Of a DNA stretch of 37,371 nt, positions 1,625 to 34,393 are shown one piece after another. The notes below the pieces were generated by a model, which did no database searches, was not told where the DNA came from, and saw only the letters and a program-made list of their open reading frames with translations. Position 1 is the stretch's first letter. Each line of letters starts with the position of its first letter. A program made the position numbers and the translations under genes. This DNA comes from a virus (taxonomy: Duplodnaviria; Heunggongvirae; Uroviricota; Caudoviricetes), in IMG/VR virus record IMGVR_UViG_2579779116_000018, positions 1-37,371 of that record; one strand, 5' to 3'.

Positions 1625-1637
1625 CGCGGGGCTTTTT
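1613..1637 (+). terminator. rho-independent terminator overlapping stop codon
   Basis: AGCCTCGC-ctagc-GCGGGGCT hairpin (one G-U pair) followed by TTTTT; stop TAG of the upstream gene lies in the loop. Confidence 0.6.
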
Positions 1638-1651
1638 ACTATGGGGTTATT

Positions 1652-3331
1652 ATGAAAACTAAGTTGTATTCATATATCCGCTTCTCGTCTATGAAGCAAG
1701 CGGATGGTAGTTCTTATGAACGCCAGAAGAGAACAGCGAAAGAGATAGCCGCAAAATATGATCTTGAGCTAGTTACAAGCTATCAGGATTTTGGTGTATC
1801 TGCATTCAAAGGGGCTAACAGTAGAACAGGTGCACTATCTCGCTTTCTGGATGAGATTGGTCGATCTGTTCCGGTTGGTAGCTGGCTGGTTGTGGAAAAC
1901 TTGGACCGTATCTCTCGCCAATCCATCATTGAAGCACAAGAGCTATTTCTCTCGATCATACGTAGGGGAATAACCATTGTCACTGGTATGGATGGGAAAG
2001 TGTATAGCCGCGAATCGGTTAATGCTAATCCCATCGATTTACTATTGAGTGTCATGTTGTTTGCGAGAGCTAACGAGGAAAGCCAGACTAAGCGCAATCG
2101 TACTAACTCAAGCGCACTGATTAAGATTAAGTCGCATCAAGAAAATCCCCAGAATCCGGCAGTGGCAATCGAGGAAGTTGGGAAGAATATGTGGTGGACG
2201 GATACCACTTCCGGTTATGTGTTGCCTCATCCTACATACTTCCCTGTTGTTCAGGAGATTGTGGAATTACGGAAGAATGGACGTTCAACCGCCGAAATAC
2301 TGGATCACCTTAACGAGACATATGCACCACCACCAGCAGTAAGCAACAAGAAGCATTCAAAATGGTCACGGGCAATGGTTGAAAGGTTGTTTCATACCCG
2401 CGCTTTGATTGGTATCAAGGAGGTCTCTGTCGATGGTGTTAACTATGAGTTAAAGGATTATTACCCTCGTGTTATTGATGATGCTACGTTCTATCACCTT
2501 AAGAAAAATATTGGTGCTAGAGCATGGAACTTTGGAGACAAGGAAGAAGTTAAACCGATCCCCCTGCTTAGTGGTATTGGCCTATTGAAATGTGATCATT
2601 GCGGTTGCGCTATGGTTAAAGTGAAGGGAACGAACAAACGTTCTGACCAGTATCGTTATACATGTGATGCGACCCGTTCACGTAGACTTGATTGCGAGCA
2701 TCCAAACTGGAGTTTTCGAGGTGATCAATTAGAGAAAGCTGTATTGCAATTGCTGGCTGATAAAATCTGGATTGCTGAGGACAAGGCTAATCCGGTTCCG
2801 GCGTTGAAAGTACAGGTTGATGAAATATCACGCAAGATTGATAACCTGATTGCCCTTTCTGCTATGACAGGAGCAACGAAGGAGCTAGCCGATCAGATTA
2901 CTACCCTCAATAGCGAGCGTGAAACACTCTACAATCAGATCAAGATGGCAGAAGAGGAAATGTATTCTGTTGACTCTCAAGGCTGGGAGAAGCTCGCAGA
3001 ATTTGATTTAGAAGATGTTTACAACGAGGAACGACTAAAGGTCCGGTTTAAGATTAAGCAAGCTCTAAAGCGGATCGGGTGTAGCAGGATTGACAGAAAC
3101 AAAAACTTGTTTGTACTGGAATACATCGATGGAAAGACCCAGAGAGTTGTAATAGAAAATTCAAGAGGAACGAGGAAAGGACAAATCTTTGTCGATTTGA
3201 AAACTATCAATGATAGGCAGATTCTGGAGAGTAACGGGCTTGTTCTGCATCCATGTTTAGACATGCTGACAGATAAGAACTGGAAACCAGAAGAGGAAAT
3301 ACCAGGTCCATTACAGGAATTTGGAATTTAA
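1652..3331 (+). CDS. large serine recombinase (559 aa)
   Basis: N-terminal resolvase-type catalytic domain (YSYIRFSSMKQ with candidate nucleophilic Ser), recombinase domain, Cys-rich zinc ribbon CDHCGC...YTCDATRSRRLDCEH, and C-terminal coiled coil: the typical large serine recombinase architecture. Confidence 0.9.
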   Translation: MKTKLYSYIRFSSMKQADGSSYERQKRTAKEIAAKYDLELVTSYQDFGVSAFKGANSRTGALSRFLDEIGRSVPVGSWLVVENLDRISRQSIIEAQELFLSIIRRGITIVTGMDGKVYSRESVNANPIDLLLSVMLFARANEESQTKRNRTNSSALIKIKSHQENPQNPAVAIEEVGKNMWWTDTTSGYVLPHPTYFPVVQEIVELRKNGRSTAEILDHLNETYAPPPAVSNKKHSKWSRAMVERLFHTRALIGIKEVSVDGVNYELKDYYPRVIDDATFYHLKKNIGARAWNFGDKEEVKPIPLLSGIGLLKCDHCGCAMVKVKGTNKRSDQYRYTCDATRSRRLDCEHPNWSFRGDQLEKAVLQLLADKIWIAEDKANPVPALKVQVDEISRKIDNLIALSAMTGATKELADQITTLNSERETLYNQIKMAEEEMYSVDSQGWEKLAEFDLEDVYNEERLKVRFKIKQALKRIGCSRIDRNKNLFVLEYIDGKTQRVVIENSRGTRKGQIFVDLKTINDRQILESNGLVLHPCLDMLTDKNWKPEEEIPGPLQEFGI

Positions 3332-3367
3332 GCGGCCTAAATCGACGTATAACGAGCTAAAACAGTT

Positions 3368-3396
3368 AAGGGGTACATTCGTACCCCTTTTTAATT
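3368..3396. terminator. bidirectional intrinsic terminator between convergent genes
   Basis: Perfect hairpin AAGGGGTAC-attc-GTACCCCTT followed by TTTTTAATTT; sits between the recombinase stop (3331) and the minus-strand gene stop (3405). Confidence 0.7.
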
Positions 3397-3404
3397 TAAT
3401 TGCA

Positions 3405-4580
3405 TTAGAGAGCGTTTAAGAGAGTATTAAAGTATTCATCCATTAAATCAGGATTGTTGTCATCAATACAGAAAAATTCCGGTTTATTGATGCCGTAGAA
3501 GTGAGTATGTAGCTTGAATGTATCGTCATCAAATACATCTTTCGGAGATACCCACATATTAGCCTCGTCCGGTTGATTGGTTAGGTAGTCATAAACCAGT
3601 TGCTGTAAGTGCGGCAACTCATCAATAGTCAGAGTTTCCGACCATCCATCCTTGAAATCTTTGTAGGGTGCTGCATGAGTCTTGAAGCGTTGTTTTACTT
3701 CATGCTCTAAATCGGCAGCTTTCCAACCATCCTCAAACTCATGAGTAAAGATTAAGCGGTGAGTGAAGTTGCTCTTTCTGGTTTGTTCTCTCATTCGTTC
3801 TTCTGGTTTTCGGGTAGTGATTCCAAATTTAATAAATTTGTCATCTAATAATTGAATGTAGAAACTAGCCTTACCCTGATAAGTCCGGTTAGACAGTTGC
3901 ACCAGTTGGTCTTTAATGCAAAGCGGACAAGTGAAAGAATCAGCACATCTTAAATGAGATTCCCATTCGTGGTTATGTGACTTGCAATAGGTTTTAAATT
4001 TAACATCCTTTAGGTGTGGGGTGTTTATGGTAAATCCTTTGAAGATGTAAGGTGTAGTCTCGCAACGTGCATTGATGATTGTCTCTTTGTCCTTAATAAC
4101 TTCATCAAAAGTCTTGCCACTTCTTACCCGTTGGGATTTTTCAGCCATACAGATTTTACAATCAAAATCAAAATCATCCTTGAGAGCATGTAATAGAGAT
4201 GGCGTCATGATTTGATTGTGTATAGGACACAAAACACGGGCTTTTGTCTTGTTGCGCCCTTTCCATTCTCCTTGCCATCCTAGAAACTTCTTTCCCTTCT
4301 CATTACAACGAGATTCCATTTTCAACCATACAGCCTTTTCAGTCTGGAATAACTCACCCCCGTTAGTATCTTCCAGTTTGCGTAATTTGTAGTCCTTATA
4401 TTCTTGTGTATCTAAATTGTAGATTCGAAAGTAAGTGTGATTACCCTTCCACGGTAGGATAAATCCACCAAATACGAAAGCAGGTTCCAGTTTAGCGATG
4501 ATTCGTTGTTGGTACTCTTCCGGCGATAAACCGCGAGTTTTCTTAACAAAAGGAATTTCGGCAGCGTAAGCAAGTTTCAT
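3405..4580 (-). CDS. Zn-ribbon-repeat / T5orf172 domain protein, paralog B (391 aa)
   Basis: Start moved from ORF-track 4691 to the internal ATG at 4578-4580, which has RBS AGAGGAAACTACT upstream and gives an N-terminus (MKLAYAAEIPFVKKTRGLSPEEY) matching the paralogs. WKG/C...CP.C repeats and C-terminal FYIQL...KFGITTRKPEERMREQ. Confidence 0.75.
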   Translation of the reverse strand: MKLAYAAEIPFVKKTRGLSPEEYQQRIIAKLEPAFVFGGFILPWKGNHTYFRIYNLDTQEYKDYKLRKLEDTNGGELFQTEKAVWLKMESRCNEKGKKFLGWQGEWKGRNKTKARVLCPIHNQIMTPSLLHALKDDFDFDCKICMAEKSQRVRSGKTFDEVIKDKETIINARCETTPYIFKGFTINTPHLKDVKFKTYCKSHNHEWESHLRCADSFTCPLCIKDQLVQLSNRTYQGKASFYIQLLDDKFIKFGITTRKPEERMREQTRKSNFTHRLIFTHEFEDGWKAADLEHEVKQRFKTHAAPYKDFKDGWSETLTIDELPHLQQLVYDYLTNQPDEANMWVSPKDVFDDDTFKLHTHFYGINKPEFFCIDDNNPDLMDEYFNTLLNAL

Positions 4581-4639
4581 AGTAGTTTCCTCTAAAATAA
4601 TAAGTTCACTACTATTTATTAGAGAAAATTGTCTTACTA

Positions 4640-4667
4640 TTGCATTCTCTATCTGAATGTGTATAAT
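4640..4667 (+). promoter_or_regulatory. putative sigma70 promoter for the 4735 gene
   Basis: TTGCAT (4640-4645), 16 bp spacer, TATAAT (4662-4667), in the divergent intergenic region 4581-4734. Confidence 0.4.
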
Positions 4668-4734
4668 ACGCGACCCTAAATCCCAAACCAACCATATTGA
4701 GGTTATGCCTATAAGTTAAAAAAGTGAGGTCTAT

Positions 4735-5304
4735 ATGATTCCAGTAATGGCTAAAGATATTGTTTTTACTCCTAAATCCTCCCGTGCTGTAACTCCATCG
4801 GCATTAGAACAACGCATTCTGACTCACATCAAAGATAAGGACTTACCATTAGTCTTTCATGGCTTTCTGGGTGAGTTTAAAGGGCTTCATTCAAGAATTG
4901 CTCTAACATGTACCCGATGCGGTAATAGAGCCGACAAATCAGCTACTAACCTGCTTAATGAAGGTAAACGATGTGTTTGCTTCAATAGTGACTACTTTCA
5001 ATATAAAGCGGGTGTGCCTTATCTCTATGTAATGAAGTCTGGGGATATTGGTAAATTTGGTGTTACAAAGTCAATCATCAAGCGACGTGTTAATCTGGGT
5101 GTACGCAATCCCGGTCATAACTTTGATATTGTCTTTGCTGGTGAAATGCCATCAATGAAACATGCTTTAGCCACTGAAAGAGCAATAAAGAGATTACTGG
5201 ATGTGGGTATAGGCGGGATTGAATACGGCAAAACTGAAACATTCCACTACTGCAATAAATCACTAAACAATATAAAGAATATTGCAAGTGTGGAGTGGAA
5301 CTAA
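4735..5304 (+). CDS. Zn-ribbon / T5orf172 domain protein, paralog C (189 aa)
   Basis: RBS GTGAGGT before ATG; one GEFKG...C..C...RCVC repeat and C-terminal PYLYV...GKFGVTKSIIKRR T5orf172-like segment. Confidence 0.75.
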   Translation: MIPVMAKDIVFTPKSSRAVTPSALEQRILTHIKDKDLPLVFHGFLGEFKGLHSRIALTCTRCGNRADKSATNLLNEGKRCVCFNSDYFQYKAGVPYLYVMKSGDIGKFGVTKSIIKRRVNLGVRNPGHNFDIVFAGEMPSMKHALATERAIKRLLDVGIGGIEYGKTETFHYCNKSLNNIKNIASVEWN

Positions 5305-6794
5305 TGCAAGATATTAAAATTCATTTTCAAGATTACAGTTTCGTTAAGGTTGATTGCTCTCCTTCTATCGGAATGGAATTAAGAGATTATTTCTCTTTTG
5401 AGGTTGAAGGGGCTAGGTTTAGCCCCCGATACAAGTATTCAGGCTGGGATGGACGAATAAGACTGTTTACGCATGAGAATACCCTACCAATTGGACTATT
5501 AAAAACGTTGGGTGTCTTTGTTAAAAATATGGGGTATTCAGTCTGGATTGACCCGCGATTGCTTGAGAAGGAAGATGTAACCAAAGAACAGATTGATTCA
5601 TGGATTGATTCTTTAGAAGTGTATTCCGGTAGCAATAAAATCAATCCTTACTGGTATCAGCGTGAAGCAGTCTTTCAGGGTATTCATAATCGCCGTAGAA
5701 TGCTGGTTCTTCCTACCAGTGCGGGTAAGTCATTGATTGCTTGTATGCTGTCTCGTTGGTACTTAGAGCATTACACCGGAAAGGTGTTAATCATTGTCCC
5801 GACTACATCGCTAGTGGTTCAAATGAGGGATGATTTCATCGATTATCGGTTATTCCCTTATGAAGCAATCCATACAATGATGAGTGGTAGCGGGAAACAT
5901 CCGGGAGACAGGTTAATCACGGTTAGTACCTGGCAATCAGCTTGCAAGATGCCTCCTGAATGGTTCAAACAATATGGAATGTTGATAGTTGATGAATCGC
6001 ATAAGGCTAGTGCCAAAAATATTACCAATATCATTAACGGAATGAATCATTGCCAATTTAAGATCGGCATGACTGGTTCCCCGAAAGAATCAAAGTGCCA
6101 TTTAATGCAGTATGTCGGGCTTTTCGGTGATATTTCCAAGATCGTGAGTATTGACCGCCTGATGGAAGAAGGGCAGGTGACAAAACTGAAAATTAACTGT
6201 CTTTTCCTTCGTTATACCGATGAGGAATGTAGCGCGGTTAAGGGGAGAGAATATGCGGAAGAGATCAAGTATATTACATCTAACCCACGACGTAATAAGT
6301 TTGCTTGCAATTTGGCGCTAAAACTCGCTAAGAAGGGCGAAAACGTATTCCTGATGTTCCGCAATACTAAGCACGGAAAACTTATGTATGACGCGTTACA
6401 GAAGGTACACGACAAGGTTTATTATATTGACGGTGGAGTTAAGACAGAAGAACGTGATGAATTTAAGAAAATGGCGGAGGGTGACACCGGGATCATTTGT
6501 GTTGCGTCTTATGGTGTGTTCTCTACTGGTGTTTCAATTAAGAATTTGCACCATGTTATTTTCGGTCATCCAGTGAAGGAATCAACTATCGTTCGTCAGA
6601 GTATCGGTCGTGCATTGCGTAAACATGGTTCTAAGGATATTGCAACGGTCTGGGATCTTATAGATCATCTGTGTATATTCGGTCGTAACGGAAAAATCAA
6701 GCATAAAAATTATGCGGTAAAACATGCACTTGAGAGAATCCGCTATTATCTAACCGACAAGTTCAGATATGCAACTAAAACAATTGCTATATAA
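5304..6794 (+). CDS. SF2 DEAD/DEAH-box DNA helicase (about 496 aa)
   Basis: Walker A LPTSAGKS, DESH box (LIVDESHKAS), motif III MTGSPK, motif VI VRQSIGRALR. Start taken as ATG 5304 (RBS GGAGTGG) rather than the ORF-track GTG at 5295. Confidence 0.85.
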   Translation: MQDIKIHFQDYSFVKVDCSPSIGMELRDYFSFEVEGARFSPRYKYSGWDGRIRLFTHENTLPIGLLKTLGVFVKNMGYSVWIDPRLLEKEDVTKEQIDSWIDSLEVYSGSNKINPYWYQREAVFQGIHNRRRMLVLPTSAGKSLIACMLSRWYLEHYTGKVLIIVPTTSLVVQMRDDFIDYRLFPYEAIHTMMSGSGKHPGDRLITVSTWQSACKMPPEWFKQYGMLIVDESHKASAKNITNIINGMNHCQFKIGMTGSPKESKCHLMQYVGLFGDISKIVSIDRLMEEGQVTKLKINCLFLRYTDEECSAVKGREYAEEIKYITSNPRRNKFACNLALKLAKKGENVFLMFRNTKHGKLMYDALQKVHDKVYYIDGGVKTEERDEFKKMAEGDTGIICVASYGVFSTGVSIKNLHHVIFGHPVKESTIVRQSIGRALRKHGSKDIATVWDLIDHLCIFGRNGKIKHKNYAVKHALERIRYYLTDKFRYATKTIAI

Positions 6795-17543: not shown

Positions 17544-17918
17544 TTACCCCAATTGTCCGCTCTTGAGCTTTTGTAATAATGAAGCGTCGAAAAAACTATC
17601 AACCAAAGCAGCGTTACGTTCTTCCTCTTTCTTACGAGCAATTTCTTTTATTTCTTCTTGCGTTTTAAATTGCTTGTCGTCCTTAATCATTCGGAATTGG
17701 TTAACATTGATTTTATTCAACCATTCACGAGTCATGTTAGGAGATGTAACGTGCATGTAATACATCGACTGTGCATGTCGCGCATCTTGAAACAGGGGGC
17801 TTTGTGGTTCAAGATATGTATCGAATATATGCAACGCCCAAAATAGCGTAATTGGCATATTATCCATCTCATCTTTACTCAAGCCCCGACGCATCATTTG
17901 CCGAAAATAAAAATTCAA
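17544..17918 (-). CDS. tail assembly chaperone T-frame ORF (expected C-terminal part of a G-T fusion)
   Basis: ORF lies in the -1 frame relative to the upstream G-like ORF and overlaps its end. The ORF-track start is a TTG, not a credible independent start; the T frame is open from 17942. Confidence 0.5.
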   Translation of the reverse strand: MNFYFRQMMRRGLSKDEMDNMPITLFWALHIFDTYLEPQSPLFQDARHAQSMYYMHVTSPNMTREWLNKINVNQFRMIKDDKQFKTQEEIKEIARKKEEERNAALVDSFFDASLLQKLKSGQLG

Positions 17919-17926
17919 GAGCGGGT

Positions 17927-18235
17927 TTACTTTACCTCGTTTTCAATTACCGCCGCATCTTTCATCAATGATGCTTGAGCAACTAAGCCGATTAATTCGC
18001 TGCGGACGCTAGTATACAATGCCTTAACTTGTTCAATAGATTCAAATACTGGCTTACCGTCTTCATCTTCAATACAACGAAGAATAGAGCGTTCATCACG
18101 GTCTTTTTTATCAGTATTGAAAACATGTTCATTAAATTCTTGTACCGACATAGGGCGAGCATAGAACGTAAATCCTCCGAGGGTTAAAGATTCACGTTTC
18201 GGAGAAAGAGCTTTCAGCATTTCATTCAGATTCAT
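17927..18235 (-). CDS. tail assembly chaperone, gpG-like (102 aa)
   Basis: Small acidic protein immediately upstream of the T-frame ORF and tape measure gene, the conserved G/GT/TMP arrangement. Confidence 0.6.
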   Translation of the reverse strand: MNLNEMLKALSPKRESLTLGGFTFYARPMSVQEFNEHVFNTDKKDRDERSILRCIEDEDGKPVFESIEQVKALYTSVRSELIGLVAQASLMKDAAVIENEVK

Positions 18236-18280: not shown

Positions 18281-18787
18281 TTAAGAGATTTTCAAAGTCT
18301 GCTTAGTGCCAGTCTTCTTAATGTTATTGAGGAAAGCAGCCGGAGGATTGCTTAACCAATAGTAATGAAAACCGCTTTGCATACTGTTATAAGGAACAGT
18401 GACAGCAGCACCACCCAAATTAACGGTTATATTCCCCGCTCTACCGTTCTGGAGATATACAGCCATAGTAGGAGTACCGCCATTGAATTGACCAACGATA
18501 ACGCCAACCAGATGGCCTACGCCCACGTTTTCGGGGTTCTCCATAGATCCTTTACCGCGCATGTCAGTTACTGGATAGTTTGAAGCAGTTACACCCCAGT
18601 TATTACCCAATGAAGTAGACCATGCAGCAGTAGCAACAACCGTATCCATACCACGACCAGCCATTGCCGACATATTACGCGGAGCCGGAACTTTTAAAGC
18701 TGTTAATGCTTCTTTCATCCATCGCTTACCCGTCACTGATACAGCCGATGACCCGATCCAGCCGGGAACTTTAACGACATTTGCCAT
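18281..18787 (-). CDS. hypothetical structural protein (168 aa)
   Basis: Gly-rich protein between the tail tube candidate and the chaperones; RBS GGAG; function unknown. Confidence 0.55.
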   Translation of the reverse strand: MANVVKVPGWIGSSAVSVTGKRWMKEALTALKVPAPRNMSAMAGRGMDTVVATAAWSTSLGNNWGVTASNYPVTDMRGKGSMENPENVGVGHLVGVIVGQFNGGTPTMAVYLQNGRAGNITVNLGGAAVTVPYNSMQSGFHYYWLSNPPAAFLNNIKKTGTKQTLKIS

Positions 18788-18802
18788 TTTGATTACTCCA
18801 AT

Positions 18803-18829
18803 AAAAAAGCCCCACCATTAAGGCAGGGC
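18803..18829 (-). terminator. intrinsic terminator (copy 1 of an identical pair)
   Basis: Minus-strand RNA GCCCUGCC-uuaa-GGUGGGGC (two G-U pairs) followed by UUUUUU; the same 27 nt recurs at 24578-24604. Confidence 0.7.
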
Positions 18830-18946
18830 TTATAATTAATCTTTAGCCTTGCGGCTTCGTTTAGCTGTGGCTTTCGCCGTAACAACCTCAATTTCAGGAA
18901 TCACCGTAGGTTCATCTTGAATTGGCTGGGGTTGTTCTTCGAAAGT

Positions 18947-19423
18947 TCAACCACCAGCGGTAAACACTTCCTGTTTGATCGGAGCACCATCAACAGCAAA
19001 GGTATATTCTTTAGTTACGACTTCTTCATCGCCACCCTGCATAGCCGCTTTAGAGATAAAGCCGTTGAAAGCGGTGCGAATACCAGTCTGCTTACCAGCA
19101 TCAACATAATATTCAATCTTAATCTGAATACGCGTGCCATCTTCGGCTGCCTTATCCAGTTTAGCGTGTACCGCATCACCTGGGATGTAGTTAACGGTCA
19201 GAGTCAGATCAGGAACGTTCAGTTTCCCTACCAGTTTACGGTTATACTGAGAAGAGAAGGATTTAACTTCTACAGTACCGCGTTCGATAGCAGTTTCAGG
19301 GAAGCCAGCGCACTCTTTAATTTCTTCGTAACCGGAGTGATCGAGAGTGGTATTAGTGGTATCCGCGTGATAGAACAGACTTACCAGACCACCAGTAAAA
19401 ATATCTTTAAATTGCTGAGACAT
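18947..19423 (-). CDS. putative major tail tube protein (158 aa)
   Basis: Size and position upstream of G/T chaperones; strong RBS AAGGGGTAATT; followed by the same terminator module as the capsid gene, consistent with a highly expressed major structural protein. Family not confirmed. Confidence 0.6.
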   Translation of the reverse strand: MSQQFKDIFTGGLVSLFYHADTTNTTLDHSGYEEIKECAGFPETAIERGTVEVKSFSSQYNRKLVGKLNVPDLTLTVNYIPGDAVHAKLDKAAEDGTRIQIKIEYYVDAGKQTGIRTAFNGFISKAAMQGGDEEVVTKEYTFAVDGAPIKQEVFTAGG

Positions 19424-19478: not shown

Positions 19479-22400
19479 TTATTTAGTTGCTTTGAGTTCG
19501 GCTAATTCAGCTTTCGTTTCGGCAAGTTCTTTAGCCATAGCATCAAACTTAGCGCTCATTTCCTGAAACGCCTTAATTAAAAGAGCGTTGACAGCAGAGT
19601 TAGAAATTGTTAAGATCTCTTCTGGCTTATCAGGATCGCCGATCTTAGAAGTTGTTACTGCTTCCGGCAATTCTTTTTCAAGATCCTGAGCAATAATACC
19701 AACTTCATGAGCGATAACAGTGCGGTCCGTCAAAGACTTAACCTTATCGTAGGTGTACACAGTCAAGCGATTAACTTTATCGGTGGCATTCTCCTTATAC
19801 TCTTCCTTGTTGATTTTCAGACGAGCATCAGAACGAATATAAACATCGTTAAAGTTACCATTGCGTCCAGCTTGGAAATCACCGGAGGCGTTAAAGTCAA
19901 AGTTTGTGGTATGGATATGAAGACGTGCCATAGCATTAGTAATAACACCACTAGGAACGTGTACACCCATTGCCGCGATGTGGTCTAAACCCCATTTGGT
20001 CGCTTTCCATACGTTATATGCGGAAGTTTGAGCATTAGGACAATCAACCAATAAGCCAGCAGCGCGAGTTTTCCATTCTGACCATGCACCACCTTGTACT
20101 TCTCCGCGAATCAAACCACGGTCGCTACCGTTTGCATACCCACGTTCTAAGCGAATCATACCAGTCTGGAAAACATGGTCAAATTCTCCGCTGTTATAGT
20201 TTCGAATGCGCATTTGACCTGAGCCATCACCCCAGATAACACCACGGTTAGTACCATTAGCATCCTTAAACCAGAGTTCTTTATTACCATCTCTATACAT
20301 CTGAATTTGGTTATTGGTACGCAAAACATTAGTAACCACCAAATCACCATTTATCCGAGCACGACCACCCGTTTCTAAACTACCAGCAACTCTGAATTGA
20401 ATCGAACCGTTAGAATCACGCTGAGAATATAGATGATAGCTTGTTTCGTCAGCAAGTTCCCACACCTGAGCGCGAGTTTCATTACCCCAAGATTTAACAA
20501 AGAATACAGATTTCGATCCTTCGTCGTTACGTTCCCAATACAGTCTGCTTCCAAGATGTGTGGTTGCGTTCACTTCAACTCGTTTACGTTCGTTGTTGAG
20601 ACGCATTAAATGATTACCAGCATCGCTACCACCTAGTGTAACGTTACCATTGGCTAGGCTATAGATGAACGGCCTAAAGGTATTCCACGGACCCATAGTG
20701 TCGCCTGATTTTGTGCTCATCAGATAAACGTTACTACCGTCATTTCGCCACCATGAACCATAGTTACCATATACAGTACGGAAGCCATCAGCATATAAAG
20801 AAATGAATTGACCGTTAGTATAAACTCGCTTCATATTGCCAGTTTGAAGTTCTATCTGGCCGTCAATATGTTGACGAATAGAACTACCGCCTACATCACT
20901 ATACCATTCAAAAACGTTAGTATCAGCATTGGCATAACCGATCCATCCTTGACGAGTAATATCTCCAGTACGATTATCTTGAAACGCAATATGGTTGGAT
21001 TGACCAGCAGGTCGGCGTAGTGTAATGGCATTAGATCCGCCATTTAACAGCATACGACCAGAAATAATATTACCTTTATGAGTCCCAGCAATAGAGCTAC
21101 TAGATTCAACGGTTAGAATATCCTGAGCATCAGTGGCACCAGTAGCCAGACGATAGCTGGCACCTTGAACAGTCTCATGCCAGATCATTTCATTATAGTT
21201 ACTACGGAATTTACGAATATATTTCCGTCCAGTACCTCTATCATTGCTTAGATGAACAATGTCATAGCTGTTTTGTGTATTGTCGTCAAAACTCAACACA
21301 CCACGTTTATTTTCGGTGTTGAAAAGAGTTACGTTGCGACCACCGATAACACCAACGGAAGGTTTAATTAACGTGGCTTCCGGCGTATCATAAACCGTCA
21401 AACTTACATAAACAGATTTCCCATATTCGACAATAACGTTATCGGTATAACGCTGATATTTCACGTAGATATCATAGTTATCACCGGAAGTATTGACAGC
21501 AAATACCTCAAAATCTTTGTTTGTATTTCTACGGTATGCAATTACGTTAAGACCTTTAGGTCTATCGTTACCACTACGCAGAAGAATTTCTACTACGTCA
21601 ACCTGATCATATGCCGTAACGCTGTAACCATTACCACCATGAATACGGAAAAACACACTACGCCCGTTTTGTGGAATTGTTGCGGTTGCCAATTTGAAAT
21701 ATGCAGATACGTTTTCGCTAGAATTAGGAACAGACATAACGACGTTTTTAACAAACATCTTATCAACTTCTGCTTTAGTGTATGCACCAATCTCGCCAGG
21801 AGTCGGCTTATCACCTTCGTGATACATCTTATAGCTAAAGTTCTTCTGTCCTTCTCTATCAAAACCATAGGTTTCAACACGAGATCCACCAGACGCATAA
21901 CGGAAAGTAAATCCGCGACCGTGCGCTTTACCGGCAGAATGAGGAACGTTAAGGGTCAGATCCATGAGTCCATCTTGTCCATTGGTACGGAAAGCACCAA
22001 AGTAGTTAAGATCTCGCGCTGTCTGATCTTCCAGATAGTTAGCTGTCTTGCTTAACAAATACCCGCCATGCTTAGTATTGGTATTCTTCTTGATGTAAGC
22101 AGCATCGGCACTACCTTCAATAGAATCAATTCGCTGGTTAGCTGCGGCAATTGCGGCATCAGTAGAAGATTTATTCTGGTCTACCTTGTTGTTAATAGCG
22201 GTATGGTTGCTGTTAACAGTGCCAGTAAGGTTACTGATTTTAGTATCAGCATCTTTCTTGTTGTCGGAAACGACCTTTTCAATCGCTGTTTTGTTAGCTG
22301 CAACCGTGCTAGTTAAGCTAGAAATTTTGTTATCTGCATCGGTTTTATTTGCAGTAACAGTTTTAGTTAAGTTGCTAACGTTGGTGTTAGTGGTATTAAC

Positions 22401-22928
22401 TTTGTTGTTAATCGCGGTGTTATTGTCATTAACCGTCGTGGTTAAAGCTGCGATTTTATTGTCCGCATCTCGTTTATTATTTGCTACAGTAGTTTCTATA
22501 GCTGATTTGTTAGATGCAACTGTCCCTGTAAGGTTATTGATCTTAGTATCAGCATCGGTTTTATTTGCCGTGACTGTCTGGGTTAAGTTACTAACCGTGG
22601 TGTTAGTAGCATCAATGCGCTTATTGGTCGCTGTATCTTTCGTGGTAATAGTCTGATTCAGTTCAGCTTTAGCACTAGCCAGATTATTAGCGGCTTCTTG
22701 TTTGTTGGAAGCAATAACACGGTCAGTGCTAGTTTTGTTATTGTCTACTTTCGTATTCAGTTCAGCGTGTTTTTCTGGAGAAACACTAATTTGGACTACG
22801 TTATTATTTTTGTCTTTGGTGTAAATCACATGATCCGCCAACTGTAAGGCGATTTCACCCTGTGATAATTGTTCCGGCGTTGGTTTTTTACCAGCCGTTT
22901 GTGTGCGTTTAAATTGGATTGATTGCAT
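19479..22928 (-). CDS. fibre protein with C-terminal intramolecular chaperone (peptidase S74) domain (1149 aa)
   Basis: C-terminus SDARLKINKEEY...VIAHEVGIIAQDLEKELPEAV...LLIKAFQEM matches the auto-cleaving chaperone domain of T5 L-shaped fibre / endosialidase type; N-terminal third is Thr/Asn-rich tandem repeats; KPTPGEIGAYTKAEVD motif. Confidence 0.85.
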   Translation of the reverse strand: MQSIQFKRTQTAGKKPTPEQLSQGEIALQLADHVIYTKDKNNNVVQISVSPEKHAELNTKVDNNKTSTDRVIASNKQEAANNLASAKAELNQTITTKDTATNKRIDATNTTVSNLTQTVTANKTDADTKINNLTGTVASNKSAIETTVANNKRDADNKIAALTTTVNDNNTAINNKVNTTNTNVSNLTKTVTANKTDADNKISSLTSTVAANKTAIEKVVSDNKKDADTKISNLTGTVNSNHTAINNKVDQNKSSTDAAIAAANQRIDSIEGSADAAYIKKNTNTKHGGYLLSKTANYLEDQTARDLNYFGAFRTNGQDGLMDLTLNVPHSAGKAHGRGFTFRYASGGSRVETYGFDREGQKNFSYKMYHEGDKPTPGEIGAYTKAEVDKMFVKNVVMSVPNSSENVSAYFKLATATIPQNGRSVFFRIHGGNGYSVTAYDQVDVVEILLRSGNDRPKGLNVIAYRRNTNKDFEVFAVNTSGDNYDIYVKYQRYTDNVIVEYGKSVYVSLTVYDTPEATLIKPSVGVIGGRNVTLFNTENKRGVLSFDDNTQNSYDIVHLSNDRGTGRKYIRKFRSNYNEMIWHETVQGASYRLATGATDAQDILTVESSSSIAGTHKGNIISGRMLLNGGSNAITLRRPAGQSNHIAFQDNRTGDITRQGWIGYANADTNVFEWYSDVGGSSIRQHIDGQIELQTGNMKRVYTNGQFISLYADGFRTVYGNYGSWWRNDGSNVYLMSTKSGDTMGPWNTFRPFIYSLANGNVTLGGSDAGNHLMRLNNERKRVEVNATTHLGSRLYWERNDEGSKSVFFVKSWGNETRAQVWELADETSYHLYSQRDSNGSIQFRVAGSLETGGRARINGDLVVTNVLRTNNQIQMYRDGNKELWFKDANGTNRGVIWGDGSGQMRIRNYNSGEFDHVFQTGMIRLERGYANGSDRGLIRGEVQGGAWSEWKTRAAGLLVDCPNAQTSAYNVWKATKWGLDHIAAMGVHVPSGVITNAMARLHIHTTNFDFNASGDFQAGRNGNFNDVYIRSDARLKINKEEYKENATDKVNRLTVYTYDKVKSLTDRTVIAHEVGIIAQDLEKELPEAVTTSKIGDPDKPEEILTISNSAVNALLIKAFQEMSAKFDAMAKELAETKAELAELKATK
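22070..22720 (-). repeat. in-frame tandem coding repeats within the fibre gene
   Basis: Protein-level repeats of the type TVTANKTDADTKI(N/S)NLTGTV..N.TAIN(N)KV recur several times; nucleotide repeats visible. Approximate bounds. Confidence 0.6.
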
Positions 22929-23007: not shown

Positions 23008-23841
23008 TTAATACTCACCGAAATCGATCCGGTCAGTCTTAGCCACTGCGCCAATTTCGCTAGGTGTCGGTTTCTCATTGGTGGAATATACCTTGATCCA
23101 TTCAGAACGACCGTTTTCCTGAATATTTCGGACACGTAAACGCGGTGCGCCAGAAGTATTACAGGTTAATTGCCATGCGCCATGCTCATTAGCTTGAAGG
23201 TGAATTAATGCTGTGTCGGTTGAATATGGATTACCGCTAGCAGTTCCCTTGTAAGTTACGAAACGGTTTCCGGCTAATGCCTCGCTATCAATCGGACCCG
23301 TGAAAGGATTTACACCAGCACCGATACCAAAATCACCCTGACGTAAGATACGGCCTTCGGTCGCTATACCCCTTGCTAGAATCCCGCCATCTGGTTCAAG
23401 TTTAAATTCCAGTGTTACAGCTTTGTTATCACTACCACGGGTTTTATGTGATGTGACGTAAGCATCATAGATGACATAGTAACCAGTGTTAGCAGCACTA
23501 TAGCCAGAGTTCACAACATAGAACATACGGAAGCGTAAAGGTGTTTTATCCTCTACCGCTTTCATCAACATTGCTTGATGTTCATCGTCAAGAACACGGT
23601 TTAACGTGAGTGTCGTCGGTTCCAGTCTACGATAACCAGCAAGTTTCCCCGTAGCGTCCTGATCGTACTCTTCCAGAGTTTCTATCTCTGTGGATTCGGT
23701 TAGCGTAGGGAATGCTGCGACGTTCTCAATAGAACTAAAACTAGGATCGAAAAAGTCGACCTGATTGTCTATCTGGTTAGAGATCGACACTTCAACATGT
23801 GATCCAGTGAAAATATCTAAGTTATCTTGTGTAATATTCAT
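23008..23841 (-). CDS. structural protein (277 aa), possibly neck/collar or fibre-associated
   Basis: RBS AAGGGGTAATA; C-terminal EKPTPSEIGA motif shared with the downstream fibre; role not determined. Confidence 0.6.
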   Translation of the reverse strand: MNITQDNLDIFTGSHVEVSISNQIDNQVDFFDPSFSSIENVAAFPTLTESTEIETLEEYDQDATGKLAGYRRLEPTTLTLNRVLDDEHQAMLMKAVEDKTPLRFRMFYVVNSGYSAANTGYYVIYDAYVTSHKTRGSDNKAVTLEFKLEPDGGILARGIATEGRILRQGDFGIGAGVNPFTGPIDSEALAGNRFVTYKGTASGNPYSTDTALIHLQANEHGAWQLTCNTSGAPRLRVRNIQENGRSEWIKVYSTNEKPTPSEIGAVAKTDRIDFGEY

Positions 23842-23850
23842 TATTACCCC

Positions 23851-24273
23851 TTAAAAACGCGCTAGATAAGAAAATTTAAGGCTAAGTGTCCCAACGATAC
23901 CACCATCACTAGAATCATCGTCATAATCGGTATTAGAGGCTACTGGAGTGATATCTGAAATTGAGAAGCCCAAATCTTTAAAACGTGGGTTATCCGGCTG
24001 AATCTGGATTATCTGGCAAATACCCTCATGAATTTTGGTTTCATGAATCTGAGAATATAATTGCATTTCGATAACGCATTCAGCTTGCATTGCATTACCA
24101 CCACGAACACGCGTATAAGTTTCATTCATGCCAGTGATCCAACAAACCACGTCATCACTAAAGCCTTGCTGAGTTTGTTCTACGTTTAAAGCCAGACCTA
24201 AATCTTGTTCGATAATATCTTGCAAGGCGCGTTTGATTTTCAGTCTAGGCATATTATTAACGGTAGCGAGCAT
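23851..24273 (-). CDS. head-tail connector protein candidate (about 140 aa)
   Basis: Start placed at internal ATG 24271-24273 with RBS AGGGGGT; small protein directly after the capsid gene region, typical position of head completion proteins. Confidence 0.5.
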   Translation of the reverse strand: MLATVNNMPRLKIKRALQDIIEQDLGLALNVEQTQQGFSDDVVCWITGMNETYTRVRGGNAMQAECVIEMQLYSQIHETKIHEGICQIIQIQPDNPRFKDLGFSISDITPVASNTDYDDDSSDGGIVGTLSLKFSYLARF

Positions 24274-24547: not shown

Positions 24548-24577
24548 AGTTACCCCCTTTATGGAGTATTTACATAC

Positions 24578-24604
24578 AAAAAAGCCCCACCATTAAGGCA
24601 GGGC
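24578..24604 (-). terminator. intrinsic terminator (copy 2 of an identical pair)
   Basis: Identical 27 nt to 18803-18829: GCCCUGCC-uuaa-GGUGGGGC then UUUUUU, immediately downstream of the capsid gene. Confidence 0.7.
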
Positions 24605-24697
24605 TAATTATTATTTTGCTTTCGGTGGACGTCCCACCTTTTTAGCTGTGGCTTTCGCCGTAACTACCGGAATTTCTTCCGGCAATTCTTCGTTATT

Positions 24698-26704
24698 TCA
24701 CTCTTCGCCCATTTTCAGAACTTTCAGAGCTTCCGGCTGAACTACGGTGAAGTCCAGGTCTACCCAGATACGCGGAACGATAGCAGACTGTGCGCGGTAA
24801 GTGGTGTCATCCATATCCAGTTCCAGACCACCCCATTCACCGATCATGATACCGGAGAAGTCACCCAGAACGATGTGGTCTGCCGGAATAACGCCAGAAG
24901 TAACTACATCGTAACCAGCCAGTTTGCCGTTTTCGATGATATAACCGGAAACGCCGTTATCTTTCAGGGTAGATTCCAGTTCAGCAGCAGTTGCACCGCT
25001 CATTGCAAACTTGATGGACTGTGCCGGAACGCCAGCGTCGGTCAGTGCTGCAATTTCTTTCAGGAAGTCTTTGTAAGAGAAGGCAGTTTTCTTAGTAACG
25101 CGACCACCGTCTACCAGTTGCTTAACCAGACCAGCCGGACCACGAGTATTATCTTTGTCAGACAGAATCAGTTGTTCCAGTTTGATCCGAACAGCTTTGT
25201 TAATGTGATCAGTGATCAGGGTAGCGATGCCGGGAACTTGCTTGATGCTCGCTCTGCTAATCGGGTTGCCTCCAGCAAACGTCTTAGGAGACATTTTCAC
25301 GTTCGAAAAGGTAGCCTTCGACTCGGGGGCACTTCCATTTTCATCAACAAAACCAAAGGCTTCGACGCTGGAAGCAGTCATTTTTGGTACTGCAATCGGG
25401 CTATTCAGACCAGACAGAACAGTCACACCCAGACGACCCAGACACGAAGCAGGAAGCAGCATTTCGATGTAGGATTCAGTCAGCAGTTTTTCATCGGTGA
25501 TAGCAGTCAGGTCAGCTTTGGTGTTGCCAGCAGCAGCAGCACGCATAGCAGCAGCCGGAACGAATACAGAGCCACCACGAGCAGCACGACCACGCTGCAT
25601 TGCAGCACCAGCAGCCATAGCGGAATATTCAGCTTCGTTAGCACCCAGAGCAGCACCATCTACCAGAGAGCGAATTACGTTGTTCAGGTCAAAAGTTTTT
25701 TCCATGTTTTTTTCCTTATTAATTTGTTCGTTATTACGTTGAGCATTGGTAATGTTATTTAGTGCCTTAGTGCGGAATGCTTCCGGCGTCATGTCTTTAA
25801 TTGCCAATGCGCGTTTCAATTCTTCGTCGTCAATATTTAGTTCGCGTGCAATTTCGCGAATTTCTAATTCGTCTTCTTCGGAACGTTCAGCCACTTCTTC
25901 GATTTTTTCTTCTTCAATCGGAGCGGCTTCACGTTCTTCTTTTACTTCTTCTTCTTCCCGAACAGTTGAACTATCATCATCAACACTTTCAGGATGTTCA
26001 GCGTCTTTTCCGTCTTCGAGATTTTCATCTTCTTTATTCTCTTCAACTTGGCGCTCTTGAGTTTCTTCAACTTCCGATTCTTTATTTTCTTCTACCGGAG
26101 TTTCTTCAACCTGAGCGGATTCTTGTTCTTCTTTGATTTCTTCGATTTGTTCTTTAGTCATATCGCGTTTAGCCCCCAAATTAACTGTGATAGTATTTAG
26201 AGAGCGATTTAAACCGACCGAATCATCGGCAGGGACCGTCACAAATGAAATTTCAAAAGGCGCCCACTTAGTAACAATCAATTGCCCTTTGGTGTAGTCG
26301 ATGTGATATTCTTTAATGTCATAACCGACAGAAATTTTTTCCATCGTACCTTCAATGACTTTATTGCGAATATCATTAGCCAAAGTGCCATGCTTAGAGA
26401 ATTTAACCAGAGCACGACCTACGTTATCCGTATCGATTCGAGCGTCGCAGACTACACCAATGTGATTATCGAAATTATGATTGAACAGCAACGGAGCGTT
26501 ATTATTCAGACGAGACAGATCAACCGCTTCCGGTGTATGTACCAGAATTTCATCTAATACCACCATTTCTTGATTTTGCTCATCCCAGAATTGGCGCTGG
26601 TAAGGCTGGGTACTGGAGAAAGCAATTTCAAATTCGTATTGATCGTTATGCCCTTCATTAATAACTCCACCGTAACCGTTAAGATCGCGGCGAAATTTAA
26701 GCAT
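24698..26704 (-). CDS. prohead protease (S78-like) - scaffold-like linker - HK97-fold major capsid protein fusion (668 aa)
   Basis: N-terminal domain with PLLFNHNFDNHIGVV, KISVGYDIKEYHID and FEISFVTVPADD (caudoviral prohead protease signature); Glu-rich about 120 aa linker; C-terminal about 350 aa typical of HK97-type capsid proteins; single uninterrupted ORF. Confidence 0.85.
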   Translation of the reverse strand: MLKFRRDLNGYGGVINEGHNDQYEFEIAFSSTQPYQRQFWDEQNQEMVVLDEILVHTPEAVDLSRLNNNAPLLFNHNFDNHIGVVCDARIDTDNVGRALVKFSKHGTLANDIRNKVIEGTMEKISVGYDIKEYHIDYTKGQLIVTKWAPFEISFVTVPADDSVGLNRSLNTITVNLGAKRDMTKEQIEEIKEEQESAQVEETPVEENKESEVEETQERQVEENKEDENLEDGKDAEHPESVDDDSSTVREEEEVKEEREAAPIEEEKIEEVAERSEEDELEIREIARELNIDDEELKRALAIKDMTPEAFRTKALNNITNAQRNNEQINKEKNMEKTFDLNNVIRSLVDGAALGANEAEYSAMAAGAAMQRGRAARGGSVFVPAAAMRAAAAGNTKADLTAITDEKLLTESYIEMLLPASCLGRLGVTVLSGLNSPIAVPKMTASSVEAFGFVDENGSAPESKATFSNVKMSPKTFAGGNPISRASIKQVPGIATLITDHINKAVRIKLEQLILSDKDNTRGPAGLVKQLVDGGRVTKKTAFSYKDFLKEIAALTDAGVPAQSIKFAMSGATAAELESTLKDNGVSGYIIENGKLAGYDVVTSGVIPADHIVLGDFSGIMIGEWGGLELDMDDTTYRAQSAIVPRIWVDLDFTVVQPEALKVLKMGEE

Positions 26705-34203: not shown

Positions 34204-34393
34204 TTTCGGGGGCAAATTTCAGGGGCAAAAATTAGATTTTCAGGGGCAATTATTGGCATTTCAGGGGCAAAAATGAGGGGCAAAATCACCGTTTCCCAGA
34301 ATTTCAGGGGCAAAAATAGTAGGTTTCAGGGGCAAAAATGGGATAGTGAAATCTAGGGGGATTTTGGTTCAGGGGCAAAATTCAGGGGCAATT
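34204..34393. repeat. iteron-like direct repeats, consensus TTCAGGGGCAAAA (about 10 copies)
   Basis: Copies at approx 34204, 34218, 34238, 34260, 34274, 34304, 34324, 34352 (degenerate), 34369, 34381, irregularly spaced; all same orientation; immediately upstream of the promoter at 34461. Confidence 0.7.

Follow-up and report, generated by a model that had tools for sequence, protein, structure and literature searches.

The window, meaning the whole 37,371-nt stretch of prophage DNA analysed here (IMG/VR record IMGVR_UViG_2579779116_000018), probably carries a portable, programmed UGA-readthrough cassette in two copies, one behind the major capsid gene and one behind a tail tube gene, each yielding a minor, extended form of the protein in front of it. 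A small share of the capsid and tube proteins would thus probably bear an extension composed of an acidic linker and a basic tip. Judged from sequence comparison, this is a comparatively well-supported readthrough case, in which one duplicated cassette would serve both major virion proteins.

The tail tube gene (18950..19423, minus strand) has 158 codons; including its stop, the ORF spans 18947..19423(-). Its standard product ends ...VFTAGG, the 3′ end of the gene reading GGT GGT TGA A. A PHROG search assigns the ORF to ‘major tail protein’ (E=3e-21). Scores for the Pfam TTP families fall short of the cut-offs of those families, and searching the PDB by sequence with the tube profile returned no matches. 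The relationship was instead given by a fold search: the AF2 model of the 158-aa protein (pLDDT 71) resembles the tube proteins of 80alpha, YDC107, lambda gpV and NF5 (E 6e-7 to 1e-6, TM about 0.6), and by fold comparison it can be aligned to the N-terminal tube domain of lambda gpV. Going by the PHROG match together with this modelled fold, the 158-aa ORF encodes a genuine tail tube protein. A gp38-like adhesin gene is all that separates the tube gene from the chaperone and tape-measure genes downstream of it; in gene order, the tube gene is followed by the gp38-like adhesin, a chaperone (102 aa), a 124-aa ORF and the tape measure (784 aa). A second tube paralog of 277 aa is present as well, and the major tube subunit could be either paralog.

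The tube gene ends in UGA followed by A (18947..18949, minus strand), within the conserved context TGA ACT xxC GAA GAA. From here the same frame stays open for 36 codons (18839..18946, minus strand; TFEEQPQPIQDEPTVIPEIEVVTAKATAKRSRKAKD) up to a UAA (18836..18838, minus strand) that stands about 5 nt (4–6 nt) ahead of a terminator stem, an arrangement already described in the first-pass annotation and confirmed here. The extension begins with an acidic, Pro-rich linker (TFEEQPQPIQDEPTVIPEIEVV, net charge −6) and finishes in a basic tip (TAKATAKRSRKAKD, +5 over the final 12 residues); were the UGA decoded as X, the junction would read ...QEVFTAGG-X-TFEEQPQPIQDEPTVIPEIEVVTAK. Within it lies a 20-nt box, TTAGCTGTGGCTTTCGCCGT (18861..18880, minus strand), which is common to the capsid copy, holds a GGC-GAAA-GCC mini-hairpin and does encode VTAKATAK in the extension frame, as had been stated. 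The extension is followed by a G+C-rich hairpin, an intrinsic terminator (18800..18831, minus strand) of the form GCCCUGCC-UUAAU-GGUGGGGC plus a U-run. In dinucleotide shuffles, frame 0 of the tube extension stays open in 17.5% of trials; with a P of about 0.18 for this open frame alone, its significance has to come entirely from comparison with relatives.

The box is present in exactly two copies, at 18861-18880 and 24642-24661, where chance would give 0. The second copy lies behind the major capsid gene (24701..26704, minus strand), whose 668 codons specify a prohead protease, a scaffold-like region and an HK97-type capsid domain (Pfam Peptidase_S78 and Phage_capsid both above cut-off; PHROG major head protein E=4e-94). 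The capsid gene likewise stops at UGA-A (24698..24700, minus strand), which is invariant in relatives with a capsid extension, and is continued by 28 open in-frame codons (24614..24697, minus strand; NNEELPEEIPVVTAKATAKKVGRPPKAK) that contain a CCGGAA-GAAA-UUCCGG hairpin, the box and a GGUGG...CCACC hairpin. Decoding of this UGA as X would give the junction ...MGEE-X-NNEELPEEIPVVTAK, and the extension closes with a tandem UAA UAA and the second terminator copy (24577..24613, minus strand). In both terminators a 9-bp stem (about −16 kcal/mol) leads into six U residues, as is typical of intrinsic terminators, and the two share a stretch of 28 identical nt (18803-18830 and 24578-24605). The duplication of box and terminator behind the capsid gene, claimed earlier, is therefore real, with the 20-nt box repeated exactly. 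Since the capsid box copy is also in frame behind TGA-A, the arrangement amounts to a two-gene system.

Stop-codon usage sets these two genes apart. TAA ends 30 of the 34 ORFs in the window, and within the structural module (3405-30743, minus strand) TGA is confined to the capsid and tube genes, all others ending in TAA. Among relatives, TGA-A occurs at every extension-bearing end, capsid types merely 40% identical included, and the first ~13 nt past the stop are conserved between the tube and capsid copies and across genera. Tube or capsid ends that carry no extension use TAA in 13 or more cases, with one exception, and the resulting table of stop type versus extension (7/0 vs 1/13) gives a hand-calculated Fisher P of about 7e-5. 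The first-pass annotation had called UGA-A the leakiest stop context in E. coli. This rank is backed in part only: UGAC is reportedly the weakest context (Poole et al. 1995). UGAA does bind RF2 relatively weakly, and the UGAA stop of pheL is read through in K-12 (PMC5373646). Readthrough in bacteria is, moreover, regarded as rare, and it is undetectable at pheL and nudL in E. coli with RF2-B, a more active RF2 variant (PMC5373646), so that, short of stimulation by the RNA, basal leakiness may be very low.

What makes the case is a comparison of relatives from E. coli, Salmonella and Providencia, for which about 50 loci were sampled and in which the unique extensions number 16 for the tube and 24 for the capsid. 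Frame 0 is free of stops in 16/16 tube and 24/24 capsid extensions, each other frame having 1–6. The shuffle probability of an open frame 0 is 0.13–0.37 per type, and its product over seven types is about 1e-5. Lengths vary by whole codons: tube extensions have 36, 39 or 41 and capsid extensions 25, 28, 33, 42, 43, 44 or 45, all in frame, with 33 in Salmonella L028 and 25 each in Salmonella L082 and Providencia L036. All of the approximately nine indel blocks in the extensions are multiples of 3; the adjacent terminator loop has indels of 1–2 nt. Frame-disrupting indels next to a retained terminator, a possibility raised in the first-pass annotation, were absent from the E. coli, Salmonella and Providencia copies examined, and the arrangement is kept across genera and differing terminators. 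A gene-blind search of IMG/VR with the box placed 44/44 matches in frame behind the TGA-A of a capsid-length or tube-length ORF, and in six further complete E. coli genomes 12/12 ends are intact, one prophage being IS-disrupted. This E. coli prophage family occurs in about 1% of complete genomes.

This comparison argues against the extensions being a non-functional relic, that is, a former C-terminal tail that was cut off by a nonsense mutation and duplicated along with the terminator, and whose frame is open through recent descent. A single frame of this length can be open by chance easily enough (P about 0.18), the residues are near neutral and Hafnia L033 illustrates that nonsense truncation of this sort does occur; yet a relic should have gathered stop codons and indels other than triplets, the way the terminator loop beside it has. 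Instead, the arrangement persists across E. coli, Salmonella and Providencia despite diverged sequence, terminators and capsid types and in-frame length variants, and none of their sequences includes a frameshifted copy. The comparative data thus largely rule out the relic reading, which we regard as very improbable. They also favour translation over the non-coding duplicated terminator module that had been offered as the alternative at the outset, and the earlier proposal that readthrough produces a minor, basic-tailed tube protein draws its support from this comparative genomics.

Outside the extension-bearing set, relatives without the leaky stop have short basic tails within the ORF (...GRK, ...RSK, ...AKSKD). 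The end of the Edwardsiella tube protein, ...NVIPEAVAAKEK, resembles the extension, and an Edwardsiella capsid-side remnant is out of frame. Several viable-looking relatives have no tube or capsid extension, which indicates that the extension is dispensable. GenBank yielded no close phage relatives, the megablast match being a 48-nt fibre stretch only; DCP80, the single distant phage relative, is without the feature, and a scan of species-representative genomes with the tube alignment found nothing. A plasmid origin was considered and gave no match. P0001, which looked like a naturally fused long form, is an artefact of TGA translated under genetic code 4, and an in-ORF (fused) homologue was not found. 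An exhaustive phmmer search of 1.84e9 proteins with the 36-aa extension produced 0 matches, a result made uninformative by the short, low-complexity query.

The place of the extension stop suggests another explanation, which we consider quite unlikely: that the act of translation matters rather than the peptide. Readthrough ribosomes would then hinder the terminator hairpin and so couple downstream head-completion and tail transcription, or mRNA 3′-end stability, to UGA readthrough and thereby to RF2/tRNA status. Such coupling would fit a frame that is conserved far more strongly than its residues and an extension stop that lies 5–7 nt from the stem, inside the ribosome footprint, in 10/10 cases; in E. 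coli, whether a stop codon is occupied also affects what happens at attenuators (PMC5373646). However, this spacing is not specific, because extension-less ends are also tightly spaced, with TAA 5–8 nt from the stem in 6/13 such relatives. Readthrough of a few percent would, furthermore, change termination marginally at most, and both the acidic-then-basic composition and the length range of 25–45 codons would be left unexplained.

The region is also strongly structured as RNA, with folding z-scores from −3.3 to −6.3. The tube extension forms a long imperfect stem-loop (18871..18945, minus strand; MFE fold z=−3.8), and a small hairpin with a GNRA loop, AGCC-GCAA-GGCU, lies among the basic-tip codons (18845..18856, minus strand; helix 3, 100% paired). 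A covarying closing stem that begins at column 14, 10 nt past the UGA, is common to 3/3 alignments. RNAalifold places the tube closing stem at columns 14-19/79-84 with two covarying pairs; 98.8% of the cells in the tube helices are paired and 0/500 shuffles match the covariation score. The internal hairpins are 98–99% paired and show three compensatory pairs per alignment, above shuffled and slid controls. One compensatory change (CG to AU) affects the tube mini-hairpin, and further ones are found in Salmonella hairpin 1 and in hairpin 3 of L020. An A/U-rich stretch precedes the terminator, and Rfam returned no match either at the gathering threshold or at E<=1.

A hairpin that starts about 10 nt past the UGA recalls the SECIS of E. 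coli fdhF, which is spaced 11 nt from its UGA and has a conserved SelB-binding loop and a bulged U. Decoding of the UGA as selenocysteine via a SECIS-like hairpin is nevertheless vanishingly improbable: hairpin sequence, size and loop (GAAA, GAUUU, large multiloops) differ between types, no type has the conserved SelB-binding loop or the bulged U of fdhF, the region lacks an Rfam match and we know of no selenoprotein among phage structural proteins. A suppressor tRNA was sought as well, and the lone call, a 91-nt ‘tRNA-Gln’ antisense inside an ORF, was judged a false positive and would in any case be no opal suppressor. Nor does the extension look like an independent small ORF, with no conserved in-frame start codon and no ribosome-binding site obvious by eye.

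Coding conservation, which the first-pass annotation had named as a check, gave a divided answer. In the tube extension, pN/pS is 0.43, compared with 0.81 and 1.19 in the shifted frames; in the capsid extension a value of 0.79 is no different from the shifted frames (0.71 and 0.53). Third codon positions in the extensions are hardly more variable than first and second positions, and within the box it is the third positions that are conserved and the first and second that vary. The residues of the extensions are under weak purifying selection and almost neutral. Synonymous divergence in the extensions (0.15–0.21) is below that of the adjoining genes (0.28–0.36), which together with the covarying hairpins points to constraint at the nucleotide level. 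The in-frame capsid copy, the RNA structure and the weak amino-acid constraint had all been overlooked in the earlier reading.

Such constraint is what would be expected if the cassette were foremost an RNA element—a structured 3′ UTR or a 3′ UTR-derived sRNA present in two sibling copies, in which the box would serve as a seed or bind a protein and the U-tailed terminator would be the handle for Hfq—and if translation past the UGA were incidental. Strong folding (z −3.3 to −6.3), paired hairpins with compensatory changes, conserved third positions in the box, a pS below that of the adjoining gene and the A/U-rich stretch ahead of the terminator would all suit this reading. Still, we rate it as unlikely, because an RNA element has no need for an in-register open frame, whole-codon indels or an invariant UGA-A, all three of which are universal here, and has no Rfam match even at E<=1. 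It also gives no reason for the acidic and basic pattern of the frame-0 translation to survive non-homologous segments: in all extension types, an acidic, Pro-rich N-terminal part (−4 to −9) is followed by a basic tip (+5 to +7), despite the replacement of segments by non-homologous ones. For the tip, an AT-hook (GRP / RGRK) was considered and dropped, as types such as KKQRKTKE and KRRKSK are without the core motif, and the description ‘basic’ was kept. The RNA-element and readthrough readings are compatible, in that the structure could serve readthrough or stabilise the mRNA.

According to the preferred reading of programmed readthrough, most ribosomes would terminate at UGA-A and release the normal protein, and a small fraction would decode the UGA via a near-cognate tRNA, with Trp as the most likely insertion. 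These ribosomes would translate a further 28 codons (capsid) or 36 codons (tube) in the same frame before reaching the UAA near the intrinsic terminator. The structured RNA 10 nt past the UGA may stimulate this event or else shield the 3′ region, which is mostly left untranslated, against degradation, and we infer that readthrough reaches a useful level. Each virion would hence contain a few capsid and tube subunits with a disordered tail, built from an acidic, Pro-rich spacer and a Lys/Arg-rich tip, which by analogy with lambda gpV and T7 10B would project from the outer surface of tube and head. Our guess is that such tails might provide weak electrostatic sticking to polyanions of the cell surface or matrix, similar to the role proposed for Ig-like decorations. 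The tube copy was apparently gained by copying of the whole cassette, from UGA-A through the terminator, from behind a capsid gene. A more far-reaching and rather doubtful proposal is that the cassette constitutes a mobile readthrough-tail module, made up of UGA-A, its conserved context, RNA whose structure stimulates readthrough by bacterial ribosomes, the peptide with its acidic linker and basic tip and the terminator, which tailed phages can graft in frame after any abundant virion gene so that the particle bears a small number of charged tethers.

To our knowledge, recoding in tailed phages that generates minor extended capsid or tail forms is known through frameshifting only, readthrough among phages is known from small RNA phages only and hairpin-stimulated readthrough in bacteria is not established apart from SECIS. 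In the literature searched, no readthrough-extended capsid or tail proteins of dsDNA phages were found. If the mobile-module reading were true, it would be the first case of programmed stop-codon readthrough in the structural genes of Caudoviricetes, and its RNA would be the first readthrough stimulator in bacteria other than SECIS. Readthrough at these two genes, if real, would widen the repertoire of bacterial recoding, allow RNA-stimulated readthrough and the effects of RF2 variants to be studied in a natural setting, reveal a site for low-copy display that a coliphage naturally has on its head and tail and bear on the long-standing question of what purpose T7 10B-like minor capsid proteins serve. 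Since the extensions of both genes are unannotated in RefSeq, a part of the virion proteome would also be escaping gene callers and PGAP systematically.

Several known systems invite comparison. Structured regions with their own intrinsic terminator and a conserved short box upstream of it are also a hallmark of the 3′ UTR-derived, Hfq-dependent sRNAs of enterobacteria; these, however, require no in-register open frame, and no Rfam family matches here. The extended 3′ stem-loop stimulators of Firth et al. 2011 (cited in PMC5009743) share with the present cassette a leaky UGA, a spacer of ~8–10 nt and an extended pairing that covaries, but they belong to eukaryotic viruses and act on eukaryotic ribosomes, and the stimulatory role proposed here is putative.

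Extended capsid and major tail proteins made by recoding have been described for T3/T7, A2 and A118/A500/PSA, and the T3 capsid extension is an Ig-like domain (PMC5009743). In Listeria PSA, A118 and A500 and Lactobacillus A2, one siphovirus lengthens its major capsid protein and its major tail protein alike (PMC5009743), the gene pair concerned here. These phages rely on +1 or −1 frameshifts that typically add folded Ig-like domains, whereas the prophage described here would use UGA readthrough to add low-complexity tails of 25–45 residues that are encoded by homologous copies of one cassette. The extensions, being in frame 0, of this length and of low complexity, accordingly differ from frameshift-derived Ig-like extensions.

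The 10A/10B pair of T7 and T3 offers a similar precedent, in which recoding at the gene end gives rise to a minor version of the major capsid protein with a longer C-terminus, although it depends on a −1 frameshift, adds about 50 residues and concerns the capsid only, not the tail. In T7, the extension ORF fills the gap from the normal stop to the strong terminator behind the capsid gene. Lambda gpV, whose tube domain continues into an external Ig-like domain, likewise bears an appendage on the C-terminus of the tube domain, but one that is folded, encoded within the ORF and found on every subunit, unlike the unfolded, charged tail that only readthrough products would carry here. Finally, Qbeta A1 and the luteovirus CP-RTD resemble the proposed mechanism in that a leaky UGA ending the coat gene leads to a few extended subunits per particle, and the coat stop of Qbeta is UGA-A, too. 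Both are small ssRNA viruses in which large, folded readthrough domains are essential for infection or transmission; in the present tailed dsDNA prophage, by contrast, the extension is dispensable in some relatives, would form a short, disordered tail and is found on the tube as well as the capsid.

The tail tube gene, a 158-codon ORF on the minus strand (18950-19423), ends in GGT GGT TGA A and is followed in frame 0 by 36 open codons (TFEEQPQPIQDEPTVIPEIEVVTAKATAKRSRKAKD) up to a TAA at 18838-18836, with a G+C-rich hairpin and U-run starting ~5 nt further on. The leaky-type stop, the in-frame extension and the TAA near the terminator hairpin, from which the first-pass annotation had proposed readthrough or, alternatively, a non-coding duplicated terminator module, are all present in the window. 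So is the duplication it had described: a 20-nt box within the extension has exactly two copies (none expected by chance), and the terminators behind the tube and capsid genes are identical over 28 nt. Taken alone, the open frame is unremarkable in this composition, as it persists in 17.5% of dinucleotide shuffles.

The second box copy lies in the frame of the capsid gene (24701-26704, minus strand), which encodes 668 residues comprising a protease, a scaffold-like region and an HK97-type capsid domain. Its stop is likewise TGA A, and its extension, NNEELPEEIPVVTAKATAKKVGRPPKAK, is followed by TAA TAA and then the terminator. The terminator and box of the two copies are offset by 5775 and 5781 nt, respectively, and the copies therefore differ by a frame-preserving 6-nt indel. 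TAA ends 30 of the 34 ORFs in the window, and the only TGA users in the minus-strand structural module (3405-30743) are the capsid and tube genes, both with TGA-A. As the two most highly expressed virion genes, they would normally be expected to carry a tight stop.

A PHROG ‘major tail protein’ match (E=3e-21) and a predicted fold uphold the assignment of the 158-aa product as a genuine tail tube protein: its AlphaFold model, based on 16 homologues and with a pLDDT of 71, matches experimental structures of the 80alpha, YDC107 and lambda gpV tube proteins at E ~1e-6. Sequence-only Pfam matches scored under the cut-offs, and a profile search of PDB sequences with the tube protein gave no match. 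A 277-aa paralog (23011-23841, minus strand), 29% identical over the whole tube domain, has an additional C-terminal domain of ~115 residues and stops at TAA without an extension; both paralogs are candidates for the bulk tube subunit.

On either side of the tube gene with its extension and terminator lie a gp37-like long tail fibre gene (19482-22928, minus strand; 1149 aa, C-terminal S74 chaperone domain) and a gp38-like adhesin gene (18284-18787, minus strand). In the Edwardsiella relative, the adhesin gene directly follows the fibre gene, and the fibre/tube/adhesin module is mosaic. Over 48 nt at its 3′ end (~19553-19600), the fibre gene matches the gp37 distal tail fibre gene of RB49-like T-even phages (Krischvirus) with 100% identity, which suggests that a temperate siphovirus and virulent myoviruses recently exchanged the fibre tip/chaperone region. 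A tail assembly chaperone pair (17544-18235, minus strand) consists of a 102-aa G-like ORF and a 124-aa ORF in a different frame, the usual G/GT layout; no canonical slippery heptamer was seen at the end of the 102-aa ORF. Elsewhere, the window encodes three CapR-domain proteins (348, 428 and 189 aa), a large serine recombinase (559 aa) and a UvsW-like helicase (499 aa) at 578-6794, and its non-coding stretch at 34205-34391 holds at least six iteron-like direct repeats (TTCAGGGGCAAAAAT; spacing 21-43 nt), probably a replication origin or regulator-binding array. CapR-domain genes are also inserted beside the capsid or tube genes in three related loci (L037, L040 and L041).

This E. coli prophage family occurs in 56 of 5,426 complete genomes, always on the chromosome and never on plasmids, so that the host reads UGA as a normal stop codon. 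Both extensions are unannotated in RefSeq/PGAP. No isolated phage is closely related; the only relative among GenBank phages, DCP80 (PQ671644), shares 42% protein identity and lacks the feature. Its 141-kb record is classified as Straboviridae/Gaprivervirus yet contains a siphovirus-type head-tail module, with all genes labelled hypothetical; the taxonomy or assembly may be wrong.

For a comparative test of the frame, we sampled 23 IMG/VR loci via the tube protein, 38 stretches via the bare 19-nt box, 8 complete E. coli genomes, and distant tube-homologue loci from Salmonella, Edwardsiella, Providencia, Hafniaceae and divergent E. coli. Frame 0 is free of stops in 16/16 unique tube and 24/24 unique capsid extensions, frames +1 and +2 having 1-6 stops each, and the stop before the extension is TGA-A without exception. 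Although the extensions vary in length (36, 39 or 41 codons behind the tube gene; 25, 28, 33, 42, 43, 44 or 45 behind the capsid gene), their indel blocks are all multiples of three, while the terminator loop, an internal control a few bases past the extension, has indels of 1-2 nt. The arrangement is kept despite an exchanged terminator hairpin (Salmonella L028 and L082, Providencia L036) and where the capsid protein is swapped for a type only 40% identical, and the frame is intact even in a prophage interrupted by an IS5-family element. In a gene-blind search, all 44 box occurrences lay in frame after the TGA-A of a capsid-length or tube-length ORF. Extension-less ends carry TAA, both in tube genes (Salmonella, Providencia, Hafniaceae, Edwardsiella, two divergent E. 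coli types and DCP80) and in capsid genes (Salmonella L040, L041 and L081, Hafniaceae and DCP80), giving a Fisher P of ~7e-5 for the association of TGA with an extension (hand-calculated, types as units); in some lineages the feature is dispensable. By shuffling, the open frame has P 0.13-0.37 per type, with a product of ~1e-5 over seven types that are not fully independent. No E. coli, Salmonella or Providencia copy combines frame-breaking indels with a kept terminator, a pattern that would speak against readthrough, and conservation across genera contradicts the idea that the cassette, from UGA-A through the terminator, is a neutral relic.

Edwardsiella is a partial exception. Its tube protein has an extension-like tail within the ORF (...NVIPEAVAAKEK), and its capsid gene in E. 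tarda (L031/L032, 2780-2870) ends CAG GGG TGA T, with an extension-like peptide in the -1 frame (...GREEVSVKSGRKPKTDN; (V)IPTGREEVSVKSGRKPKTDN). The cassette may have decayed here, or readthrough may have given way to -1 slippage at the G GGG that precedes a slow UGA. As to the origin of the duplication, the tube cassette looks derived from a capsid cassette, because the two share TGA ACT AAC GAA GAA..., box and terminator, and because the former is found in a single E. coli tube clade and the latter in three genera. In some genomes the terminators at both sites are alike though unlike those of E. coli (L028/L029; in L028, GCCGTCCTTCGGGGCGGC at both), which suggests copying or gene conversion between the sites; in L036 and L082 they are unlike each other.

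What is conserved in the peptides is frame and composition. The tube extension has a pooled Nei-Gojobori pN/pS of 0.43 (shifted frames, 0.81 and 1.19); the capsid extension, at 0.79, does not improve on its shifted frames. The last 100 codons of the tube and capsid genes have 0.13 and 0.29. Third codon positions are just slightly more variable than the others, and residue-level purifying selection is weak. All types, including mutually unalignable segments, nevertheless begin with an acidic stretch rich in proline (net -4 to -9) and close with 9-16 residues rich in lysine/arginine (+5 to +7). In relatives without the leaky stop, the normal proteins finish in short basic tails (...GRK, ...ARK, ...RSK, ...AKSKD). 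Six codons upstream of the normal capsid end in Hafniaceae, L033 has TAA where L034/L035 have GAA (...PAGV* AKSKD* vs ...PAGAEAKSKD*), a natural nonsense truncation of a short basic tail. An exhaustive search with the 36-residue extension peptide found nothing. The only database protein that looks fused, a public 198-aa ‘tail tube’ protein (P0001; L027, ENA ERZ27280761 k141_243218), was rejected as a natural long form: its contig is short and was translated with genetic code 4 during gene calling, which wrote W for the TGA. Miscalls of this type could lead to further candidate readthrough genes.

Constraint also acts on the nucleotides, as indicated by RNA pairing together with a synonymous divergence that is smaller in the extensions than in the genes next to them. 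Folding of the 3′ regions is much stronger than that of shuffles (z -3.3 to -6.3), and RNAalifold on three alignment sets gave a common plan: a closing stem from column 14 (10 nt after UGA) enclosing one or two variable hairpins, a GGC-GAAA-GCC mini-hairpin within the box and a third small hairpin whose loop is often GNRA; the extension stop and then the terminator come next. When the terminator is masked, pairing covers 98-99% of cells, three pairs per alignment show compensatory changes, and pairing scores exceed shuffled and slid controls (reached by 3/500 shuffles in one alignment and 0/500 in the other). Further compensatory changes are visible by eye (Salmonella CTCTCCCC/GGGGAGAG vs E. 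coli CTTCCCCC/GGGGGAAG; L020 GGCGG/CCGCC vs GGTGG/CCACC). No Rfam family matches these regions. A purely RNA-level element, be it a 3′ UTR or an sRNA, would account for structure and box but leaves the frame, whole-codon indels, invariant UGA-A and charge pattern unexplained. If translation served regulation only, with the ribosome hindering the terminator, the 5-7 nt between extension stop and stem would fit, yet spacing is equally tight at 6 of 13 extension-less ends.

Programmed UGA readthrough is most likely the mechanism producing extended capsid and tube proteins, judging from comparative genomics: conserved weak stop, context, frame and charge pattern back the proposal made for the tube stop, which now covers the capsid gene too. 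The majority of ribosomes would terminate at UGA, while a few would insert a near-cognate amino acid, at a presumed useful level and with a presumed residue, adding a disordered tail of 28 (capsid) or 36 (tube) residues. Selenocysteine insertion at the UGA is not supported, given hairpin loops that differ among types. An ARAGORN-predicted 91-nt tRNA-Gln(UUG) (23996-24086, plus strand), inside and antisense to a structural ORF, was rejected as an opal suppressor, being not opal-reading and probably a false positive.

In lambda gpV, the N-terminal tube domain runs on into an externally displayed Ig-like domain, and HK97-fold capsid proteins such as T7 gp10 display their C-termini outside. Since the 158-aa protein aligns with the tube domain of gpV, both tails would, by analogy, probably project outward; weak electrostatic attachment to polyanionic surfaces is our guess at their role. 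The hairpins may stimulate readthrough, and are similar in geometry to the extended 3′ stems of eukaryotic viral readthrough (Firth et al. 2011, as relayed in PMC5009743); alternatively, they may shield a largely untranslated 3′ end from Rho or nucleases. UGAA binds RF2 weakly, and natural UGA readthrough (pheL, nudL) is visible in K-12 but not with the more active E. coli B RF2 variant (PMC5373646); where the host RF2 is efficient, basal leakiness may therefore be very small.

A full-text literature search of incomplete coverage turned up no tailed dsDNA phage whose structural proteins are described as extended by readthrough, though an earlier description may exist. In small RNA viruses, Qbeta A1 and luteovirus CP-RTD are made by reading through the stop of the coat gene, and the prophage would resemble them in the decoding event, a leaky UGA. 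In T3/T7, -1 frameshifting yields a minor capsid protein with a C-terminal extension, and in Lactobacillus phage A2 as well as Listeria phages A118, A500 and PSA, frameshifting extends both the capsid and the major tail protein (PMC5009743). With this group, the prophage would share the gene pair and a minor extended form. Unlike either group, it would add a short disordered tail, and it carries one cassette in duplicate.
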